Positions 1,510 to 55,775 of a stretch of DNA of 64,000 nucleotides are shown here, piece by piece (position 1 is the first letter of the stretch; every line of letters starts with the position of its first letter). The stretch comes from an uncultured Clostridia bacterium. Its GTDB lineage: Bacteria; Bacillota; Clostridia; TANB77; CAG-508. The position numbers and the translations under genes were made by a program. The stretch covers positions 435,232 to 499,231 of the forward strand of contig CAKOXT010000001.1 in NCBI GenBank assembly GCA_934130285.1, written 5' to 3'. Under the pieces are notes generated by a model. The model was not told the origin of the DNA. It did no database searches and was given only the letters and a program-made list of their open reading frames with translations.

Positions 1510-1836
1510 TTACATAACCTTGGTAGTCTGATAAGACTCAAGTCCTGTAATCTTCAGGAAGTCTTCCACGATGATGACTTCAGGAAGCTGCCCACGATTT
1601 GGAATTACTCCCAAAATCTGGTGAACTTCGCCTTCACGAGTGAGCAAAAACTCTCCGTTTGTCACAAACTCACAGAGTTTCCACTCCGGATGCAACTCAC
1701 GGTACAGCTTTCTCAGCTCAGAGAGCTTCTGAAGTCCATACTCTTCCTTCAGCATTTTGCTGATGCCCATCCGAGTATCGAAATTCATACGTGGCGTGGT
1801 GTTGATAAGTTCCTTTTGCGCTTCTGTCATTTTCAT
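1510..1836 (-). CDS. Hypothetical 108-aa protein in a G+C-elevated cassette (likely start MKMTEAQKEL)
   Basis: The ORF track shows 1510..1908. AGGAGG lies 8 nt upstream of the internal ATG at 1836, so I place the start there. The coding sequence is about 45% G+C by hand count, against a very AT-rich background. The unit carries its own promoter and terminator. I could not recognise a protein family. Confidence 0.5.
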   Translation of the reverse strand: MKMTEAQKELINTTPRMNFDTRMGISKMLKEEYGLQKLSELRKLYRELHPEWKLCEFVTNGEFLLTREGEVHQILGVIPNRGQLPEVIIVEDFLKITGLESYQTTKVM

Positions 1837-1922
1837 AATGACACCTCCTAATGTCTGTTCCTTTTCTCCTCTGCACACATCTGTACAAATTCTAAAAGGT
1901 TTTGCCAACGAGCTACACTTTA

Positions 1923-4817: not shown

Positions 4818-4935
4818 AAATCAAAGATTTTTTCATTAAATTTGTTCGTGTGCGAAAATTTATGAAATAAATTTTCTGTGCAGTGTAGTTTTATATATTA
4901 GGAAAGTTTCATAACTTTCCTAATATATAAAAAAA
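4818..4935. repeat. 118-bp intergenic repeat, copy A (about 99% identical to copy B at 55658..55775)
   Basis: aaatcaaagattttttcaTtaaatttgttcgtgtgcgaaaatttatgaaataaattttctgtgcagtgtagttttatatattaggaaagtttcataactttcctaatatataaaaaa. It contains the small hairpin ttcg-tgtg-cgaa and a 17-bp hairpin tatatattaggaaagtt/aactttcctaatatata. Confidence 0.6.
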
Positions 4936-35667: not shown

Positions 35668-35880
35668 TTACATTTTCTGATACTTGACCCTCCCATCATG
35701 CCGAGTTATCTTATAGTCTATCTCAGCCATAGACAGAAACGTTTCGATAAAGTCCGAATTATCGGCTTCCCCTCTTTCATAAAGGGTAGCGTCTGGCAAG
35801 CTAAATCTTAACCTCCTAATCTCGCCCAGTTGTCCTTCTTCAGAAATTACTTGATCCAAAAACCGCCTACTTAAAATCAT
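35668..35880 (-). CDS. Hypothetical 70-aa protein in a G+C-elevated cassette
   Basis: Strong RBS gggaggtaagagagATG. The coding sequence is markedly GC-richer than its flanks. It has its own terminator, and a terminator lies upstream at about 36000..36045. No family recognised. Confidence 0.5.
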   Translation of the reverse strand: MILSRRFLDQVISEEGQLGEIRRLRFSLPDATLYERGEADNSDFIETFLSMAEIDYKITRHDGRVKYQKM

Positions 35881-36046
35881 CTCTCTTACCTCCCTATATG
35901 GAAATGTATTTATTTTAGCACTGTTTACATAAATTGTCTAGTAGCTAATTCTTTTTTCTAAATATTTAACTAATCTTTCATTTTATTTCATAAAAAAAGC
36001 CTACATGACTCGTACTAAAAAGCACGAGTTCATATAAGCTTTGATT

Positions 36047-46506: not shown

Positions 46507-47250
46507 ATGACAAAAGATAATGACTTTCTGAAAAGTCTTATTGTTGACAAAGAAACAATTCAAAGAACAAATGCTTTATCTAGGTTTGCTGGGAAAAGAG
46601 CCTATTACATTTCACATTATAAAAACGCTTACCTTAAGCATTTGAAAGATGAATATAATAAACTTCATAAAATGTTTCCGAATGTAGAAATAGTTCCTGA
46701 AGCCAGAATAAAAGGGCAAAAAAGTTATGCTGATAAAGTTAAAAGAGTAGTAAATGAAGATCCAAATAAAGACATTTATGATATCTTTGCTAATAGATAT
46801 ATCGTTCTATCTGTGAATGGATCAAATTCTGATAAAGATATAGTTCCTATTTTATATCAAATTAGAGATTATTTGGCATATTCTAATCCTAATAATGAAA
46901 TTATGCCTGAACGTATTAAAGATTATATTGTAAATCCTAAACATTCTACATATCAGTCTTTGCACTTAACACGTTTACATCATGATACTCCATATGAACC
47001 ATATCAGTCTGAAACACAGCTTAGAAGTTATTTTATGCATTCTAACGCTCATAGTGGTCGTGCAAGTCATGCTAATACTTATAAGGAAAGAATTCCTGGG
47101 AAGACACCACTTCCTAATTTGCTTGAGTATGTTTTTGATGAAAATGGGGCATGTGTTGAAGTAAAAGAAAAAAGTTATGAAAAAGCTTTTGAGGACTTTT
47201 TCGGTATACCTTATGATCCTCGACTTTTTTCTTCTTTTAAAGAAAAATAA
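46507..47250 (+). CDS. Divergent RelA/SpoT-synthetase-domain (small alarmone synthetase-like nucleotidyltransferase) protein
   Basis: Synthetase-domain motifs are present in the right order: ARIKGQKSYADKVKR (cf. GRVKxxxSxxxK), DIFANRY (cf. DIAGLRI), YQSLHL (cf. YRSxHL) and ETQLRSYFMHSNAHSGRASHANTYK (cf. EIQIRTLAMNFWATIEHSLNYK). It is clearly diverged from canonical RelQ/RelP. RBS gaggtga and an extended -10 tgatataat lie upstream. Confidence 0.6.
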   Translation: MTKDNDFLKSLIVDKETIQRTNALSRFAGKRAYYISHYKNAYLKHLKDEYNKLHKMFPNVEIVPEARIKGQKSYADKVKRVVNEDPNKDIYDIFANRYIVLSVNGSNSDKDIVPILYQIRDYLAYSNPNNEIMPERIKDYIVNPKHSTYQSLHLTRLHHDTPYEPYQSETQLRSYFMHSNAHSGRASHANTYKERIPGKTPLPNLLEYVFDENGACVEVKEKSYEKAFEDFFGIPYDPRLFSSFKEK

Positions 47251-47323: not shown

Positions 47324-48247
47324 ATGGAAAAAATATTAGTTTTTGGACATAAAAGTCCTGATACAGATACTATAGCATCTTCAATTGCTATGGCTTATTT
47401 ACAAACAAAATTGGGGAAATTAGCTGAACCTAGAAGACTTGGTAATATCTCAAAAGAAACTGAATATGCTTTAAATCATTTTAAAGTTGGAGTTCCTGAA
47501 CTTCTAGATTCTGTTTCTGAAAATGATACAGTCATTTTAGTTGATCATAATGAACCAGATCAATCAGCTGATAATATGCTAAATTCAAAAGTTTATATGG
47601 TTGTTGACCATCATCAAATAAATGGATTCCGTACACCTGGTCCTTTATATTATTATGCTGAACCTGTTGGTTGTACTTGTACAATTATTTATAAATTATT
47701 TAATCAAAACGATGTTATTATTCCTGCTGATGTTGCTGGTTTAATGTTAAGTGCTATCATTTCTGATACTTTACTTTTCAAATCACCAACTTGCACAGAA
47801 ACAGATAAAAAGGTTGCTGAAGATTTAGCTAAAATAGCTAATGTTGATATTAACTCTTATGGATTAGCTATGCTTAAAGCTGGTACTGATTTAACTTCTT
47901 TCTCTGAAGAAGAACTTGTTAACTTAGATGGAAAAATAGTTAACTTAACTGATACAGTTAAAGCAAAGATTTCTCAAGTTAATACAGCTGATATTGATGA
48001 AGTATTACTTAGACAAGCAAAATTAGAAGCTGCTATGAATAAAGATATTGAGAATTTAGGATTAGCTATTGATGTTTTACTAATTACTGATATTATAAAT
48101 AGTAACTCTCAAGTTGTTGTTTTAGGTGAAAAAGCAGATGTTGTCGAAAAAGCTTTTGGTGTTAAATTAGAAAATAATACAGCTTTCTTGCCAGGTGTTG
48201 TTTCTAGAAAGAAACAAGTTATACCTGTACTTACAGCTAATGTTTAA
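47324..48247 (+). CDS. ppaC: Manganese-dependent inorganic pyrophosphatase (DHH family II)
   Basis: MEKILVFGHKSPDTDTIASSIA, DHH motif VDHHQ and a DHHA2 C-terminal domain. Size 307 aa. Confidence 0.85.
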   Translation: MEKILVFGHKSPDTDTIASSIAMAYLQTKLGKLAEPRRLGNISKETEYALNHFKVGVPELLDSVSENDTVILVDHNEPDQSADNMLNSKVYMVVDHHQINGFRTPGPLYYYAEPVGCTCTIIYKLFNQNDVIIPADVAGLMLSAIISDTLLFKSPTCTETDKKVAEDLAKIANVDINSYGLAMLKAGTDLTSFSEEELVNLDGKIVNLTDTVKAKISQVNTADIDEVLLRQAKLEAAMNKDIENLGLAIDVLLITDIINSNSQVVVLGEKADVVEKAFGVKLENNTAFLPGVVSRKKQVIPVLTANV

Positions 48248-48277
48248 TATAGAATCTGAAAATTGTATGTAATATAA

Positions 48278-48312
48278 AAGATGGGCATTTATAAAAAGCT
48301 CATCTTTTTTCT
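48278..48312 (+). terminator. Rho-independent terminator after ppaC
   Basis: aagatgggc-atttataaaaa-gctcatctt followed by tttttt. Confidence 0.5.
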
Positions 48313-48348
48313 ATGTAATCAGATTTTATTCCTATTTTTTACTATTGA

Positions 48349-48514
48349 AGTTTTATTAGAAAAATAAATTTATTTTACCTTGTTTCGTGGTTTAGAAGCT
48401 CTAACGAAAATCAATCAGCGTCCTCATTGCTGTGAGATTCCCTAATTGATTTTCTTAAGAGCTTCTACTACCACTCTCACTGCGCAACCATAAATTTATT
48501 TTTCTAATAAAACT
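48349..48514. repeat. 166-bp nested palindromic element (23-bp perfect outer inverted repeat around a ~27-bp inner stem with a 30-nt loop); MITE-like, structured RNA or recombination site
   Basis: Outer IR: ttttattagaaaaataaatttat ... ataaatttatttttctaataaaa. Inner IR: gtggtttagaagctctaacgaaaatcaat ... attgattttcttaagagcttctactaccac. It lies at the boundary of GC-rich cassette 3. Confidence 0.55.
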
Positions 48515-48540
48515 TCATAATAATAAGATCGTGATGATAA

Positions 48541-48575
48541 TAAAAAGATTGGAGGGGTAGCCCCCTCCTTTTTTT
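48541..48575 (-). terminator. GC-rich bidirectional terminator downstream of the 160-aa GC-rich ORF
   Basis: ggaggggtagccccctcc flanked by A/T runs. Confidence 0.5.
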
Positions 48576-48583
48576 GTGTTTCG

Positions 48584-49066
48584 TTAATCATACGTATAAA
48601 GAATGTCGATGTACTCTTCAAAATTTCCCTGAACTTTTTCACCTTCCCTATTTGTGTATTGTCCATAAGATTCCTCGAGTGTTGGCAACCGCTGAAGTTC
48701 TGTACGCACTCCGTTTTCGCCAACATACACCCATCTTTTTCTGAACTTCACAAAGCTCATTGTACCATAATAATAAGCTTCGTCATTCTGACCCCAAAGT
48801 ACTCGTTGAAGCAAAACATTTTTTGTTGTTTCAACATATTCTCGTGGTAGTGGCTTAAGTGAGGGGACTTCCGTAGTGACATACCACAGGTTATACCGAT
48901 GCATATAGTCACTTACTTCATCTCTAAATCTCCAATACCGGTCAGTTACCACGTCGGTTTTGTATACTACATTAATCTTCTGTAAAGAATCAATATGTTT
49001 CAAAACCTCCTCTGGAATGACTAAATGTGGGTGAAGCTTCCGTGCTAATTTTTGAATAAGTTTCAT
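48584..49066 (-). CDS. Hypothetical 160-aa protein in a G+C-elevated cassette (start MKLIQKLARK)
   Basis: GGAGG lies 9 nt upstream of the ATG at 49066. The ORF-track start at 49108 is an upstream extension. Composition is clearly GC-richer than the flanks. No family recognised. The overlapping 76-aa ORF 48496..48726 is judged spurious. Confidence 0.5.
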   Translation of the reverse strand: MKLIQKLARKLHPHLVIPEEVLKHIDSLQKINVVYKTDVVTDRYWRFRDEVSDYMHRYNLWYVTTEVPSLKPLPREYVETTKNVLLQRVLWGQNDEAYYYGTMSFVKFRKRWVYVGENGVRTELQRLPTLEESYGQYTNREGEKVQGNFEEYIDILYTYD

Positions 49067-49127
49067 CTTGAAACACCTCCATATTGTTGATAATTTTAAT
49101 ATTAGCACTTTATGTTAATTAAGTCAA

Positions 49128-49748
49128 TTACTTTCTTACTTTTGTTATGGCTAGGCCATCACCTATTTCCAATATTTCTGATTCACATTTATCATTTTCT
49201 GTAATCTCTTTTATGTATTCTCTTAAATGTCTTACTGCTGTACGTTGCTTATGCGCATTGTAATCACTCATAACATATCCTTTATACAAAATGTTGTCTG
49301 CTAAAATTATTCCACCATCTTTTATTAATCTGATTGCGTTTTCTAAGAATATTGGATATTTTCCTTTTGCAGCATCTATGAACACTATATCATATGTGCT
49401 TGTTAGTGTTGGCAATATATCTACTGCATTTCCAACCATTATATTTATTCTTTTTGCTACTCCTATTTTCTTAATGTTTTCTTCTGCTTCTTTAGCTCTT
49501 TCTTCATCAATTTCTATTGTATCAATTGTGCAATCTTCATCTGTGCTTTTAGCAAACATACTTGCTGAATAACCAACTGCTGTTCCTATTTCTAGAATTC
49601 TTTTTGGCTTTTCTTCTTGAAGGATTTCTTCTATTTTTTCTAAAGTATCATCCATTAATATTGGTATATGATTTTCTAATGCTTTTTCTTTTACTTTTTT
49701 TAACTCTTCTTCGTTAAACATATCTTCTCCTATACTTGAATATTGCAA
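49128..49748 (-). CDS. Class I SAM-dependent O-methyltransferase (TrmR/YrrM-like tRNA 5-hydroxyuridine methyltransferase)
   Basis: ILEIGTAVGYSASMFA (SAM motif I) and FIDAAKGKY...DGGIILADNILYKG, the YrrM/caffeoyl-CoA OMT fold. Size 206 aa. Confidence 0.75.
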   Translation of the reverse strand: MQYSSIGEDMFNEEELKKVKEKALENHIPILMDDTLEKIEEILQEEKPKRILEIGTAVGYSASMFAKSTDEDCTIDTIEIDEERAKEAEENIKKIGVAKRINIMVGNAVDILPTLTSTYDIVFIDAAKGKYPIFLENAIRLIKDGGIILADNILYKGYVMSDYNAHKQRTAVRHLREYIKEITENDKCESEILEIGDGLAITKVRK

Positions 49749-49785: not shown

Positions 49786-51612
49786 TTACATATTTTTATT
49801 AGAATTTCTTGCAGCTCTTTCTCTTTCTTTTGAGTCTAATATTTTCTTTCTTAATCTGATATTTTTTGGTGTAACTTCAACTAGTTCATCATCTTGAATG
49901 AATTCAATAGCTTTCTCTAAGCTCATTTGAATTGGTGGAACTAATCTTAATGCATCATCTGATCCAGAAGCTCTTGTATTTGTTAAGTGTTTTTCTTTAC
50001 ATACGTTTATTGCTAAGTCTTCTGATCTTGAGTTAATTCCAACTATCATTCCTTCATATACTTCTACACCAGGTCCTATGAATAAGTCACCTTTATCTTG
50101 TGCATTGTATAATCCATAAGTAATTGATTTTCCAGCTTCAAATGCGATTATTGTTCCTCTAACTCTGGCAACAACTTCTCCCTTGTATGGTTCGTATGAA
50201 TCAAATATTGAGTTCATTGTTCCATTTCCTTTTGTGTCTGTTAAGAATTCTGTTCTATATCCAATTAATCCTCTTGCTGGAATCTTGAATTCAACTTTAG
50301 TATGTCCTGCTTCTGCTGGTTCCATATTAACCATTTCAGCTTTTCTTCTACCTAGTTTTTCAATTACTGTTCCTATGCAATCATCTGGTACATTTACAAC
50401 TAATCTTTCGATTGGTTCGCATTTTACACCATCGATTTCTTTTATGATAACTTTTGGTCTTGATACTAATAATTCAAAACCTTCTCTTCTCATTGTTTCT
50501 ATTAATACAGATAAGTGAAGTTCTCCTCTTCCTGATACTTCAAATGAATCTGGTGAATCTGTTTCAGCTACTCTTAATGAAACATTTCTATCTAATTCTT
50601 TAAATAATCTATCTCTTATATGTCTTGATGTAATAAATTGTCCTTCTCTACCAGCTAAAGGTCCATTGTTTACACTAAATGTCATAGATACTGTAGGTTC
50701 ATCTATATCTACAAATGGTATTTTTTCTGGATGTTCATAATCACAGATTGTATCTCCGATATTTATATCTGCAATACCTGACATACAGATGATATCTCCT
50801 GCACCAGCTTCTTCAACTTCAATTCTTTTTAATCCGTCATATGTATATAATTTTGCAACTCTTGCTGATTCTGTTTTATCATCTTTTTTACAAATTGTAA
50901 CTGGCATTCCTAATTTTACAATTCCTCTTTCAACTCTACCAACAGCTATTCTTCCAATATAGTCATCATAGTCTATGTTTGATACTAACATTTGCATTGG
51001 TCCATCTTGGTCGCATGCTGGAGCTTTGATTGTGTTTACTATTGTTTCAAATAAGCATTCTAGATTTTCTCCTGGTTTGCTTAAATCCATTGTTGCAGTT
51101 CCTTGTTTTCCAGAAGCGTATATTACTGGGAAATCTAATTGATCATCATTTGCATCTAATTCAATAAATAAATCTAATACTTCGTCTACAACTTTTTCTG
51201 GTCTTGCACCAGGTCTATCAATTTTATTTATAACTACTATTGGTTTTAAATTTAATGCTAATGATTTCTTTAAAACTTCTCTTGTTTGTGGCATTGCACC
51301 TTCAAAAGCATCAACTAATAATACAACTCCATCAACCATTTTCAATACACGCTCAACTTCTCCTCCGAAATCAGCATGTCCTGGTGTGTCAACTATATTA
51401 ATTTTAAAGTCTTTATAGTGAACTGCTGTGTTTTTTGAAAGAATTGTTATTCCTCTTTCTTTTTCTAGATCATTTGAATCCATTACTCTTTCAGCCACTT
51501 GTTCATTTGCTCTGAATATACCACTTTGTCTAAGCATTGCGTCTACTAGTGTTGTTTTACCGTGGTCAACGTGAGCTATTATTGCTACGTTTCTTATTTT
51601 CTCGTTATTCAT
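49786..51612 (-). CDS. typA: Translational GTPase TypA/BipA (start reassigned to MNNEKIRNVAIIAHVDHGKTT)
   Basis: G-domain AHVDHGKTT and DTPGHADF. About 608 aa. aaggaag RBS lies upstream of the ATG at 51612. Confidence 0.9.
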   Translation of the reverse strand: MNNEKIRNVAIIAHVDHGKTTLVDAMLRQSGIFRANEQVAERVMDSNDLEKERGITILSKNTAVHYKDFKINIVDTPGHADFGGEVERVLKMVDGVVLLVDAFEGAMPQTREVLKKSLALNLKPIVVINKIDRPGARPEKVVDEVLDLFIELDANDDQLDFPVIYASGKQGTATMDLSKPGENLECLFETIVNTIKAPACDQDGPMQMLVSNIDYDDYIGRIAVGRVERGIVKLGMPVTICKKDDKTESARVAKLYTYDGLKRIEVEEAGAGDIICMSGIADINIGDTICDYEHPEKIPFVDIDEPTVSMTFSVNNGPLAGREGQFITSRHIRDRLFKELDRNVSLRVAETDSPDSFEVSGRGELHLSVLIETMRREGFELLVSRPKVIIKEIDGVKCEPIERLVVNVPDDCIGTVIEKLGRRKAEMVNMEPAEAGHTKVEFKIPARGLIGYRTEFLTDTKGNGTMNSIFDSYEPYKGEVVARVRGTIIAFEAGKSITYGLYNAQDKGDLFIGPGVEVYEGMIVGINSRSEDLAINVCKEKHLTNTRASGSDDALRLVPPIQMSLEKAIEFIQDDELVEVTPKNIRLRKKILDSKERERAARNSNKNM

Positions 51613-51717
51613 TTTATTTCTTCCTTTCTCATTTTTCATCAAGTTTATATGAACTTGTTATTATTCTTAACACGTACTTAGGGCGTAGAATCTACGCCCC
51701 ATATAAATTTCTCAAAT

Positions 51718-51746
51718 ATTATATTACTTTTCATTAATTTTGTCAA
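51718..51746 (-). promoter_or_regulatory. Perfect-consensus sigma-A promoter for typA (TTGACA-17-TATAAT)
   Basis: Minus-strand sequence ttgacaaaattaatgaaaagtaatataat. The 5' UTR contains the GC hairpin ggggcgtagattctacgccc. Confidence 0.5.
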
Positions 51747-53557
51747 TCTGTATATACTATTACTGTTTTATTATATTTTAATGTTAGTTCAGTTGATGAA
51801 AGTCCACTATATACCCATGCATTTTCTAGTGTTATCTGCTTATTATCTTTATTATAAATTGCATCTAAGTTATAAATTCCTCCACTTCCATTTCCATTTC
51901 TTTGGAATGTCATTGTTCTCTTTTCACCTGTTTCGCTATTCTCTAGTTCTAAAACAACTTTATTTACATTTTCAAGTTCTAGTTCTTTTAATTCACCTGT
52001 TGTCGTATCTCTTGTCATAATTGAGTGAGAATTGTCTGCATCTGTCATAGCGTCTTGGTTTATTTTTATTGATTCTGCTATTGCCTTAAATGCATTTATT
52101 AATTCTGTGGCATTATCTGCTGTATATGCACCTTTTATGTTTTCTTTAAAGTACTGTGGAAATGATTTTGCTTCTTTTCCAAGTCCAACAGCGTATACGT
52201 CTGTTGGATGGTCTCCTTTAACAATTTGCATTATATTTTTAGCAACATTACCAATACTAGTTGTTGTATTCGTACATGGCCACCAATAAGCGTTTGAGTC
52301 ACCATCTGTCATAATAATTACATCTGTTGGCATATTTGCATCAGTTGTTTGAATATAATTATATGCATAATTCAAAGCGTTTGGTGCACAAGTACTATAA
52401 TTTAATGATGCTGGTGTTATTCCTGAATACAATCTTGAATATTGACTATTAGCAAGCCTACAATTTATTTGATAGGTTCCTCTTGAAGAAATAGAAAAAT
52501 AGTCATCTATTCTTAAATCACTGTTTGTATATGATATAGCTCTCCAGCCATATCGGTTTTCATAACTTTTGTATGTATCTATTATTGTTTTGACCATATT
52601 TGTATACTGTGCTTCTGAAAAAATAGTGCTATATAATGATTTAGCTTCATCTTTATTGGTACATGTTCCTAGTTCTCGAATTCCGCTGTCATTTGCTCCA
52701 TAAAAAGTTATAATTGTAACTTTCCTATCCGTTGATGGAGTGTTTCCAAAATATGTATCCATAAATTGGTCCATTGCTGTTACTGTTGAGTACCATCTTG
52801 TTTGTTGGTATCCCGCTGTATAATTTATTGATCCGTCACTATTATAACAAATAGGAATATCTTCATCTTTATCAGCTACATTGGCTACTGCTGGATCATT
52901 TGGATCGTTACATAAAGCCATTGAAACCGTTCTGTCTATTACCATTACTACTTCATGCGATTGTACTACTTCTTTTGGGTTTACTGATAATTTTATTAAT
53001 TGTGATTCGAATTCAGATGTATTTTTCTTTTTATCAGCTCCACCAAAATTTGATAGTTTGCCATATGTCTTTTGATTTTTTAGATATGCTGCATTTAAAT
53101 CCACATCTACAACATATATTCCTTTATCCTGCAAATCAGATAATTCTTTATATTTGAAGTTTGTTAGTTTCTCTTCGTTCTCATATTCTTTTGCTTTTAA
53201 TCCTAAGGTATCAGCTACTGAAATGTCGGGGTTTTCAAAATTTACATAGTACAAATACTTGTCATCATCTTCACTGTCACTTTTGGCTCCAGTTAATGTA
53301 ATCTTTTTAAGAATCCCTTCTGATACTAAATCATCCAATGACTTTTTTGATGATGAATAAGCATTATTACTTTTTAATGTATATGCTTTAATACTATCAT
53401 CTAAAGCTTGGACTTTATTCATATATTTTCCTGTTCTCATTCCAGAAAAAATTCCGTTTTCCCCTAATGTAAATGTTATTGTAACTGTTGATAACACTAT
53501 CATTACTAGTATTGTAATTACTAGTGCTATTAAAGTTATTCCTCTTTGGTTTCTCAT
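51743..53557 (-). CDS. Modular prepilin-like protein carrying a von Willebrand factor A (vWA) domain
   Basis: N-terminus MRNQRGITLIALVITILVMIVLSTV is an atypical class III-like segment. The vWA MIDAS region is VVMVIDRTVSM (DxTxS) and the beta4 strand VIIMTDGDSN. There is no LPXTG. Size 604 aa. Confidence 0.55.
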   Translation of the reverse strand: MRNQRGITLIALVITILVMIVLSTVTITFTLGENGIFSGMRTGKYMNKVQALDDSIKAYTLKSNNAYSSSKKSLDDLVSEGILKKITLTGAKSDSEDDDKYLYYVNFENPDISVADTLGLKAKEYENEEKLTNFKYKELSDLQDKGIYVVDVDLNAAYLKNQKTYGKLSNFGGADKKKNTSEFESQLIKLSVNPKEVVQSHEVVMVIDRTVSMALCNDPNDPAVANVADKDEDIPICYNSDGSINYTAGYQQTRWYSTVTAMDQFMDTYFGNTPSTDRKVTIITFYGANDSGIRELGTCTNKDEAKSLYSTIFSEAQYTNMVKTIIDTYKSYENRYGWRAISYTNSDLRIDDYFSISSRGTYQINCRLANSQYSRLYSGITPASLNYSTCAPNALNYAYNYIQTTDANMPTDVIIMTDGDSNAYWWPCTNTTTSIGNVAKNIMQIVKGDHPTDVYAVGLGKEAKSFPQYFKENIKGAYTADNATELINAFKAIAESIKINQDAMTDADNSHSIMTRDTTTGELKELELENVNKVVLELENSETGEKRTMTFQRNGNGSGGIYNLDAIYNKDNKQITLENAWVYSGLSSTELTLKYNKTVIVYTD

Positions 53558-55657: not shown

Positions 55658-55775
55658 AAAATCAAAGATTTTTTCAGTAAATTTGTTCGTGTGCGAAAAT
55701 TTATGAAATAAATTTTCTGTGCAGTGTAGTTTTATATATTAGGAAAGTTTCATAACTTTCCTAATATATAAAAAA
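55658..55775. repeat. 118-bp intergenic repeat, copy B (one mismatch relative to copy A at 4818..4935)
   Basis: Same sequence as copy A except T to G at the position ...ttttttcaGtaaatttg. It is immediately followed by a distinct terminator hairpin. Confidence 0.6.

Follow-up and report, generated by a model that had tools for sequence, protein, structure and literature searches.

How should a small, relatively G+C-rich gene be understood when it lies next to a long nested palindrome in a chromosome of otherwise low G+C content? The question is raised by a 64,000-nt stretch of DNA (hereafter the window; about 28.5% G+C) from an uncultured Clostridia bacterium of GTDB lineage TANB77/CAG-508, positions 435,232 to 499,231 of contig CAKOXT010000001.1 in assembly GCA_934130285.1. 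In this window, an open reading frame (ORF) for a protein of 160 amino acids, here called ORF160, is situated between a trmR-like methyltransferase gene and a convergent gene for a DHH/DHHA2 pyrophosphatase, and the palindrome lies between ORF160 and the latter. An initial annotation, made by reading the sequence, took the gene for mobilised cargo and the palindrome for a possible att site or recombination remnant. Such a combination looks inserted, yet the gene is old and the palindrome young. ORF160 occupies the same position in distantly related members of one clade of gut Clostridia, whereas the palindrome is specific to the window species, where its core occurs in both orientations. The two are neighbours by position only, and represent unrelated features of different age.

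The age of ORF160 is indicated by its position in relatives. At every locus of a family member that was fetched, the gene lies between trmR and the convergent pyrophosphatase gene, as far as the contigs reach. The arrangement is the same in 30 or more contigs of the window species, which come from human-gut metagenomes and encode ORF160 proteins that are 98–99% identical. With trmR upstream and the convergent pyrophosphatase gene downstream, it recurs in lineages in which ORF160 is only 45% (L001), 41% (L050) or 23–31% (L068) identical. The 84%-identical homologues (L010–L013) have trmR upstream on contigs that stop before the far side, and the locus with a 31%-identical protein (L053) displays the pyrophosphatase side only. 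The position is constant in at least five other lineages, down to 23–31% identity. There is no mobility gene, att-like duplication or tRNA near ORF160, and neither of the first two is present at the loci of the relatives. With the position conserved at 23–45% identity in these lineages and no mobility genes at hand, the proposal of a mobilised cargo gene finds no support.

The gene is clearly functional and under strong purifying selection. Within the species, the ratio of nonsynonymous to synonymous diversity (piN/piS) is 0.057, with typA at 0.046 and the pyrophosphatase gene at 0.098, and in comparison with the 84%-identical species the ratio of nonsynonymous to synonymous divergence (dN/dS) is 0.08, at a dS of about 1.1 (1.14). 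Judged by its G+C content at third codon positions (GC3), ORF160 does have the atypical composition of a recently acquired genomic islet. The overall G+C content, initially estimated by eye at 40–45%, is 38.3%, so that the deviation from the window is real even though the estimate was too high. The GC3 is 0.342, against 0.09–0.17 in eight neighbouring genes and a window median of 0.15; among the 61 window ORFs only two others are likewise strong GC3 outliers. The same is found throughout the family: GC3 is raised in all six lineages measured, with values of 0.23–0.46 where the neighbouring genes have 0.07–0.15. Since synonymous sites are saturated between lineages, already at 84% identity, the bias must be maintained, and the raised GC3 is a maintained property of the gene that provides no evidence of recent transfer. 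A codon bias aimed at the boxes decoded by mo5U34, which would have linked ORF160 to its neighbour trmR, was also considered and rejected, because the rise in G and C is general and extends over all codon classes; the fraction of G+C-ending codons is 0.22 in mo5U34-decoded boxes, which is lower than the 0.40 in other four-fold boxes. The G+C-rich codon usage may be kept by selection specific to this gene. Where an atypical codon composition is maintained through saturating divergence, as here, GC3 loses its value as a routine indicator of recent transfer.

The slot that ORF160 occupies is variable. In one sister species it is empty: trmR is followed by a 136-bp spacer with a single bidirectional terminator and then by the pyrophosphatase gene. 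By its housekeeping genes this species is closer than L001 (typA 99.2%, U32 94% and trmR 89% identical). In a more distant lineage (L020 type) a DUF378 gene and a 111-aa ORF are found in the slot. The latter is itself G+C-rich (GC3 0.37), and was rejected as a relative of ORF160 (hhalign probability 0.4%). In the same group of loci gene calling splits the pyrophosphatase gene into two overlapping ORFs, of 123 aa (DHH) and 197 aa (DHHA2), at L020 9510–10434 and L022 5927–6851, which suggests a frameshift or pseudogene; at L021 no gene is called there. The comparison of occupied and empty sites that the initial annotation recommended has thus produced an ORF160-lacking species and a variable slot, but no strain with an empty site for the palindrome alone.

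These observations can also be explained by a horizontally acquired cassette that was repeatedly re-acquired into the same slot from a pool of higher G+C content, through recombination in the conserved flanking genes. Such a history would account for the lasting G+C excess, seen in every lineage measured next to neighbours with a GC3 of at most 0.15, and for the patchy distribution, with an empty site in one species and different genes in the slot of another lineage. It would also agree with the loose relation between ORF160 identity and pyrophosphatase identity (31–43% for ORF160 where the pyrophosphatase is 73–84% identical; Spearman 0.45, n=10, not significant), and with a synonymous diversity of ORF160 that is two to three times that of its neighbours. 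We nevertheless consider re-acquisition improbable, as no homologue was found outside the single chromosomal context or in an organism of higher G+C content among 5.8 billion proteins and 1.84 billion cluster representatives, matches to PHROGs or viral structures were not significant, the promoter is conserved together with the gene, and mobility functions are lacking nearby. The simplest history has ORF160 as a long-standing, rapidly evolving resident, with loss or replacement in some lineages; the single sister species that lacks ORF160 fits loss equally well. ORF160 would then be a resident, vertically inherited accessory gene of an uncultured gut Clostridia clade of 28% G+C, forming the terminal gene behind typA–trmR with a sigmaA promoter of its own, tail to tail with the pyrophosphatase gene.

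The protein is soluble and cytoplasmic, with an isoelectric point of 6.9 and no Cys, and it was rightly described at the outset as not placeable in a family. Searches against Pfam, NCBIfam, PADLOC and PDB sequences gave no matches at all, and the PHROGs collection a single insignificant one (phrog_3808, E 0.22). A word-indexed search of the 5.8 billion proteins yielded 17 matches, most of them 98–99% identical and from the same species, with P0014 at 84% and P0017 at 45% identity. An exhaustive profile search of the 1.84 billion cluster representatives gave 13 clusters at E < 1e-3, mostly of about 160 aa and 23–41% identical to the window protein. Structure prediction, which had been recommended as a check, gave a confident AlphaFold2 model when the 13-sequence alignment was used (predicted local distance difference test score, pLDDT, 90; predicted template modelling score 0.83); this model supersedes an earlier, poor one that was based on 6 near-identical sequences (pLDDT 60.6). 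The predicted fold is of the alpha+beta type, with N-terminal helices, a long helix at residues 47–66 and an antiparallel sheet at residues 84–159. With Foldseek, nothing significant was found in the PDB or among viral models, and the weak top matches (vasohibin, RavD and staphopain, with TM-scores of at most 0.35) are papain-like. Residues F105, K107, W112 and P128 are invariant in the family, and N83 and G92 nearly so.

The protein resembles NlpC/P60 papain-like folds only faintly, and the catalytic Cys and His of such peptidases are missing: the window protein has no Cys and the family alignment contains no conserved Cys or His column, so the papain-like catalytic dyad is absent. ORF160 further differs from proteins with an NlpC/P60, CHAP or Josephin fold in lacking a Pfam match, a signal peptide and a cell-wall-binding domain. 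In view of the faint resemblance, it may at most be a degenerate, non-catalytic relative on the NlpC/P60 papain-like scaffold. Our working reading is that the protein may act by binding a partner and not by catalysis, a guess drawn from the missing catalytic residues and the weak fold match. The fold is confidently predicted yet cannot be placed, and ORF160 is the founding member of a very small, clade-restricted family. This orphan family is known only from an uncultured gut Clostridia clade and tied to the trmR/pyrophosphatase junction; it may conceivably take part in modifying U34 of tRNAs or in pyrophosphate metabolism.

The palindrome is real as well, and slightly larger than the initially delimited 48349..48514: it spans 48346–48517. 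Its arms are perfect over 28 nt, have a G+C content of only 11% and stand 116 nt apart, and nested in the core is a second pair of 26 nt (48393–48418 and 48442–48467), which is 88% complementary around an asymmetric 23-nt loop. In 100 shuffles no arm-like matches were obtained, and the fold z-scores are -12.2 and -12.7. The repeat arm reads (TG)AAGTTTTATTAGAAAAAT, and the repeat motif is designated TGAAGTTTTATTAGAAAAATAAA. When the region was compared with Rfam at E values up to 10, only chance-level matches far below the gathering scores appeared; at gathering thresholds the whole window contains one tRNA and nothing else. A 28-aa hydrophobic ORF at 48281–48367, which has no ribosome-binding site, is taken as a chance ORF. 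It begins inside the hairpin behind the pyrophosphatase gene and stops in the repeat, and is therefore unaffected by inversion.

In the other ORF160-bearing lineages examined, including L001, L050, L053 and L068, the palindrome is absent, and in the 84%-identical species the ORF160 terminator is the same and other hairpins follow it. It follows that the palindrome is the younger of the two and no scar left by the gene's arrival. Of the proposed recombination remnant only the recombination itself survives, in the form of a core that is inverted in some strains. The search for copies elsewhere, which the initial annotation had also advised, gave none: the repeat-arm pattern occurs only at this locus in the window and at one site in a 778-kb contig of the species; in GTDB genomes, which contain no match from the species itself, two single chance matches in Lysinibacillus were found; and in JGI metagenomes the arm pair is present only at this locus. 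Phage and plasmid DNA collections gave short AT-rich chance matches only.

Some further hairpins and one deviating contig deserve mention beside the palindrome. Two identical 44-nt hairpins, TTTTATATATTAGGAAAGTT nnnn AACTTTCCTAATATATAAAA, are located at 4889–4932 and 55730–55773 of the window, both intergenic and 51 kb apart, one of them adjoining a tRNA. In the 84%-identical sister species (L010, about 1790–1830) the terminator of ORF160 is followed by a hairpin of similar sequence, TATTATAGGAAAGTTC TCT GAACTTCCTATAATA, which sits in the place that the invertible palindrome has in the window species. Hairpins of this type may constitute a small family of repeats in the clade that resemble repetitive extragenic palindromes. 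One contig of about 4x coverage (ERZ869985 NODE_609; L037, 4545–4813) has the usual sequence up to the AT-rich spacer and diverges at or near the outer repeat edge; the sequence that follows, TTTTATTAATACTTTCCTTAAGAAG, is unrelated and occurs neither in the window nor at any other locus. Misassembly, an insertion, or a rearrangement with its breakpoint in the repeat may account for this departure.

The main finding on the palindrome is the inversion of its core, which in some strains is the exact reverse complement of the window sequence, bar one or two single-nucleotide polymorphisms (SNPs), between unchanged flanks. In a census of 41 contigs, each from a different sample, 31 carried the orientation of the window (A) and 10 the opposite one (B). 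The contigs were produced by several assemblers (megahit k119–141, SPAdes, Logan). Every k-mer used was longer than the arms, and contigs in orientation B invariably have diagnostic variants of their own, so that the inversion is no assembly artefact. Contigs that end inside the palindrome were rejected as evidence for mixed orientations, as their ends coincide with the centre of the hairpin instead of the boundary between repeat and core, a pattern that fits loss of coverage at a strong hairpin.

Orientation is linked to the length of the arms. All eight complete B loci have arms of 29/29 nt and none of the 19 complete A loci has; the latter carry 28/28 (12 loci), 29/28 (6) or 28/29 (1). A simple flip cannot turn 29/29 into 28/28, so that with frequent switching 29/29 arms should turn up among A loci and 28/28 arms among B loci, and the complete loci include neither combination. 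Orientation does not reshuffle at the time scale of strain divergence, and both arms change together. A sigma70-like promoter was found in neither orientation of the core, the one scan match being located in a strain-specific spacer, and no recombinase could be recognised, by eye, among the window ORFs of at least 150 aa. Furthermore, ORF160 and the pyrophosphatase gene both end before the palindrome, each behind a hairpin-plus-T-run terminator of its own. In the window the palindrome lies 33 nt away from the ORF160 unit. The terminator of ORF160 is identical across all strains, and the spacer that separates it from the palindrome, as compared over the window and L002–L060, is 17, 24, 34, 36, 44 or 56 nt long within the species, with only two length variants on the opposite flank; hypervariability of this kind would fit replication slippage beside a strong hairpin. 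The features of the locus are compiled in Table 1.

Table 1 Features of the ORF160 locus and the adjacent palindrome (window coordinates)
Feature	Coordinates	Strand	Remarks
RelA_SpoT-domain gene	46507..47250	+	between pyrophosphatase and U32 genes
DHH/DHHA2 (family-II) pyrophosphatase gene	47324..48247	+	tail to tail with ORF160
Hairpin and T-run 3' of the pyrophosphatase gene	48276..48314		likely its terminator; marks the opposite limit of the palindrome
Outer inverted repeat, pyrophosphatase side	48346..48373		28 nt
Core	48374..48489		116 bp, 41% G+C; both orientations among strains
Outer inverted repeat, ORF160 side	48490..48517		28 nt here, 29 nt in other haplotypes
Hypervariable AT-rich spacer, terminator to palindrome	48518..48550		ATTATT / ATCATC-type units
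Bidirectional intrinsic terminator of ORF160	48541..48578	both	T-run on each strand, T7 on +
ORF160	48584..49066	-	160 aa from its ATG
ORF160 ribosome-binding site GGAGGTG	49074..49080	-	7 nt before ATG; read from sequence
ORF160 sigmaA-type promoter	49099..49127	-	TTGACT, 17 nt, TG-extended TAATAT; promoter scan
trmR-like Methyltransf_3 O-methyltransferase gene	49128..49748	-	
typA	49786..51642	-	first in the minus-strand order typA, trmR-like, ORF160

The expression signals of ORF160 bear out the reading of a genuine gene with its GGAGG ribosome-binding site and GC-clamp terminator. The terminator stem, ggaggggtagccccctcc at 48551–48568, has 7 bp, of which 6 are GC, and scored as an intrinsic terminator whichever strand is read; the scan gave five terminator-like sites, where shuffled sequences led to an expectation of 0.3. 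A promoter of the layout TTGACT-17-TGnTAtTAT can also be read upstream of the ORF160 homologues in L001 and L050. No terminator was found between trmR and ORF160, which therefore is probably also the last gene of the typA–trmR transcript. The hairpin behind the pyrophosphatase gene was omitted by the consensus terminator scan because its stem has too few G–C pairs. The peptidase-U32 (trhP-like) gene is situated further along, beyond the pyrophosphatase and RelA_SpoT-domain genes.

The wider neighbourhood shows variation of its own. The RelA_SpoT-domain gene is present in the window species and L050, absent from L001, L016–L019 and L020–L022, and apparently absent in L053 and L068, where a truncated downstream ORF is on record without Pfam annotation. 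This variation is independent of that of ORF160, so that the gene marks a second variable slot. On the other side, between typA and asnB, a 604-aa protein with a prepilin-type N-terminus (GITLIALVITILVMIVLS) is encoded at 51743–53557 on the minus strand. Its gene is missing at that position in two of four sister-species loci (L016 and L019, where asnB directly precedes typA), and in L017 and L018 an ORF of 577–600 aa is called further upstream. It represents another surface-protein gene near the locus that varies between strains or species.

Two more G+C-rich small genes with a promoter, ribosome-binding site and terminator of their own occur in the window. ORF108 (1510–1836, minus strand; flanks 1470–1960) is the likely 108-aa product, beginning with MKMTEAQKELINTT, of a 132-aa ORF at 1510..1908. 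This monocistronic unit has the highest GC3 in the window (0.53), a GGAGGTG ribosome-binding site and a strong terminator, and it adjoins a gene at 2011–2319 for a protein that starts with MYYTYMIRCKDNTIYTGIT and by eye resembles GIY-YIG nucleases. Without matches in Pfam, NCBIfam or PADLOC and with 14 homologues (54–99% identity) among the 5.8 billion proteins, ORF108 is a clade-restricted orphan as well; a relationship of the ORF at 1510..1908 to ORF160 was rejected for lack of similarity. The third gene (35668–35880, minus strand) encodes 70 aa, has a GC3 of 0.44 and gave no Pfam match. Its promoter region, TAGACAATTTATGTAAACAGTGCTAAAAT at about 35905–35940, shares the 11-mer TTATGTAAACA with the ORF108 promoter TTGAAAATTATGTAAACACGTAGTATAAT, in both cases at a similar position between the -35 and -10 boxes, and the ORF160 promoter contains TTAACATAA, which is close to the reverse complement of that 11-mer. 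The common element could be a shared operator or reflect a shared origin of the G+C-rich units.

As to the mechanism of inversion, the palindrome would have arisen later than the gene, in the window species only, as a long quasi-palindromic hairpin between two convergent terminators, and its 116-bp centre would have been inverted through exchange between the 28/29-nt arms. This would be a rare event that requires no recombinase, either replication template switching or intramolecular arm exchange, and the same process would keep the two arms identical. The orientations would now segregate as a stable polymorphism at about 3:1, later exchange between strains giving mixed haplotypes. Since the arms are homogenised together and orientation is linked to haplotype, a rare inversion of the template-switch type is favoured; that the inversion is rare, independent of a recombinase and now segregating as a polymorphism has in our estimate roughly an even chance of being correct. 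Template switching is documented to homogenise repeat arms and invert the spacer between them (PMC8604942), and the palindrome shows this combination in an inversion that is probably rare, with arms of 28/28 and 29/29 and, more rarely, 28/29 and 29/28 intermediates. Several observations plead against this explanation. Loci L005 and L008, which are only 15 SNPs apart in 5 kb of flank, carry opposite orientations, and the exact ORF160 protein of the window occurs with both (L055–57 versus L058). With opposite orientations in near-identical backgrounds, either repeated inversion or recombination between strains must be assumed, and a trans-acting recombinase would explain this more easily. Moreover, the geometry of 28-nt repeats around a 116-bp core appears close to that of known Clostridial switches, the 41% G+C core inside AT-rich spacer DNA suggests functional content, and switching may be fast with a haplotype-dependent bias.

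An alternative reading is that the palindrome is a programmed inverton, without a promoter, that a tyrosine or serine recombinase from another part of the genome inverts, as RecV does in C. difficile. It could act on read-through transcripts from ORF160 or the pyrophosphatase gene, for example by offering a C-rich Rho-loading strand in one orientation, or orientation could determine which core strand becomes a small RNA that ends at the flanking terminators, both of which are bidirectional. In its favour, near-identical flanks enclose either orientation in natural strains, the core combines a high G+C content with good conservation, and the perfect 28/29-nt repeats around a short core recall known switches. 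A loose resemblance also exists between the flgB switch repeat AAGTTRCTATWTTACAAAAAA (PMC5386303) and (TG)AAGTTTTATTAGAAAAAT, a likeness that is within chance expectation for AT-rich DNA, and in C. difficile locked strains go together with a repeat length altered by 1 nt (PMC5386303), which parallels the 28- and 29-nt arms. Nevertheless we regard a programmed switch as rather doubtful. Free switching should break the link between orientation and repeat haplotype, and this link is complete. Even though a segment bounded by inverted repeats exists in both orientations, an orientation-dependent regulatory cargo was not found: there is no gene downstream of the palindrome in either direction, beyond the terminators of the convergent genes, and no sigma70-like promoter. 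By eye no recombinase was recognised in the 64 kb, and the repeat was found nowhere else in the window or the 778-kb contig, nor as a pair in the two collections. A specific version, an active promoterless inverton of an undescribed type that is placed between two convergent bidirectional terminators and switches which strand of the structured core is exposed to read-through or local transcription, we hold to be quite unlikely. If true, it would tune ORF160 or the essential pyrophosphatase gene, the 28/29-nt alleles would be natural locks, and ORF160 would be cast as a clade-specific, G+C-enriched partner of the trmR/trhP tRNA-modification locus. Insertion of a solo, Correia-like miniature inverted-repeat transposable element (MITE), once and in the window species, with later recombination of the terminal repeats flipping the interior, would account for the 28-nt terminal inverted repeats of the form TG...CA, the hairpin-forming interior, the site between convergent genes, the presence in only one species of the clade and the departure of low-coverage contig L037 at or near the outer repeat edge. 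Its probability is small, as the palindrome is single copy in the window and the 778-kb contig with only single-arm matches elsewhere in the two collection scans, no similar DNA was found in phage or plasmid collections, no strain has an empty site for the palindrome by itself, and a target-site duplication is lacking (flanks ...tactat/TGAAG and CTTCA/taataa, likewise in other strains). An integron cassette with attC site was rejected, since no RYYYAAC / GTTRRRY (R''/R') core sites can be read at the ends.

Comparison with known systems sharpens these distinctions. An integron cassette likewise pairs an ORF with an adjacent imperfect palindrome, but ORF160 has its own promoter and terminator, there is no integrase or cassette array, and attC travels with its ORF whereas the palindrome is absent beside the ORF160 homologues in L001, L050, L053 and L068. 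Correia elements and other MITEs share terminal inverted repeats of about 26–28 nt, a length of 100–170 bp, the potential to form hairpin RNA and an intergenic location; they are multicopy and flanked by target duplications, unlike the palindrome.

Invertible sites of C. difficile are 154–230 bp long, and the recombinase is often encoded elsewhere (PMC5903667); the flgB switch depends on Rho for its action, the cwpV switch on a terminator (PMC5386303, PMC5903667, PMC7446863). The RecV-dependent switches Cdi1 cwpV and Cdi4 flgB have in common with the palindrome that they are short and intergenic, with AT-rich inverted repeats and both orientations among strains, that they have no internal promoter and need no adjoining recombinase, and that their repeats can differ by 1 nt in length. 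In contrast, they sit in the 5' leaders of the genes they control, and the palindrome beyond the 3' terminators of convergent genes. Its 116-bp core is shorter and itself a hairpin, and its orientation is fully haplotype-linked, the inversion here being known from comparison between strains. It is a natural inversion polymorphism of a kind that is known in general, although its location, at the 3' ends of convergent genes, is unusual. Surveys of invertons would count it as a phase-variable switch, whereas the linkage to haplotype points to a rare mutational flip, which makes it a caution as well as a test case where programmed inversions are to be told from spontaneous ones.

Template-switch quasipalindromes (PMC8604942) are also close to the palindrome and agree with it in being intergenic hairpins at 3' ends with matched, co-changing arms and an inverted interior, with no recombinase recognised and no regulatory cargo. 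Documented arms and spacers are usually shorter, and the 116-bp spacer and 28-nt arms are at the large end. Small hairpin-associated inversions in chloroplast genomes look like a similar case.

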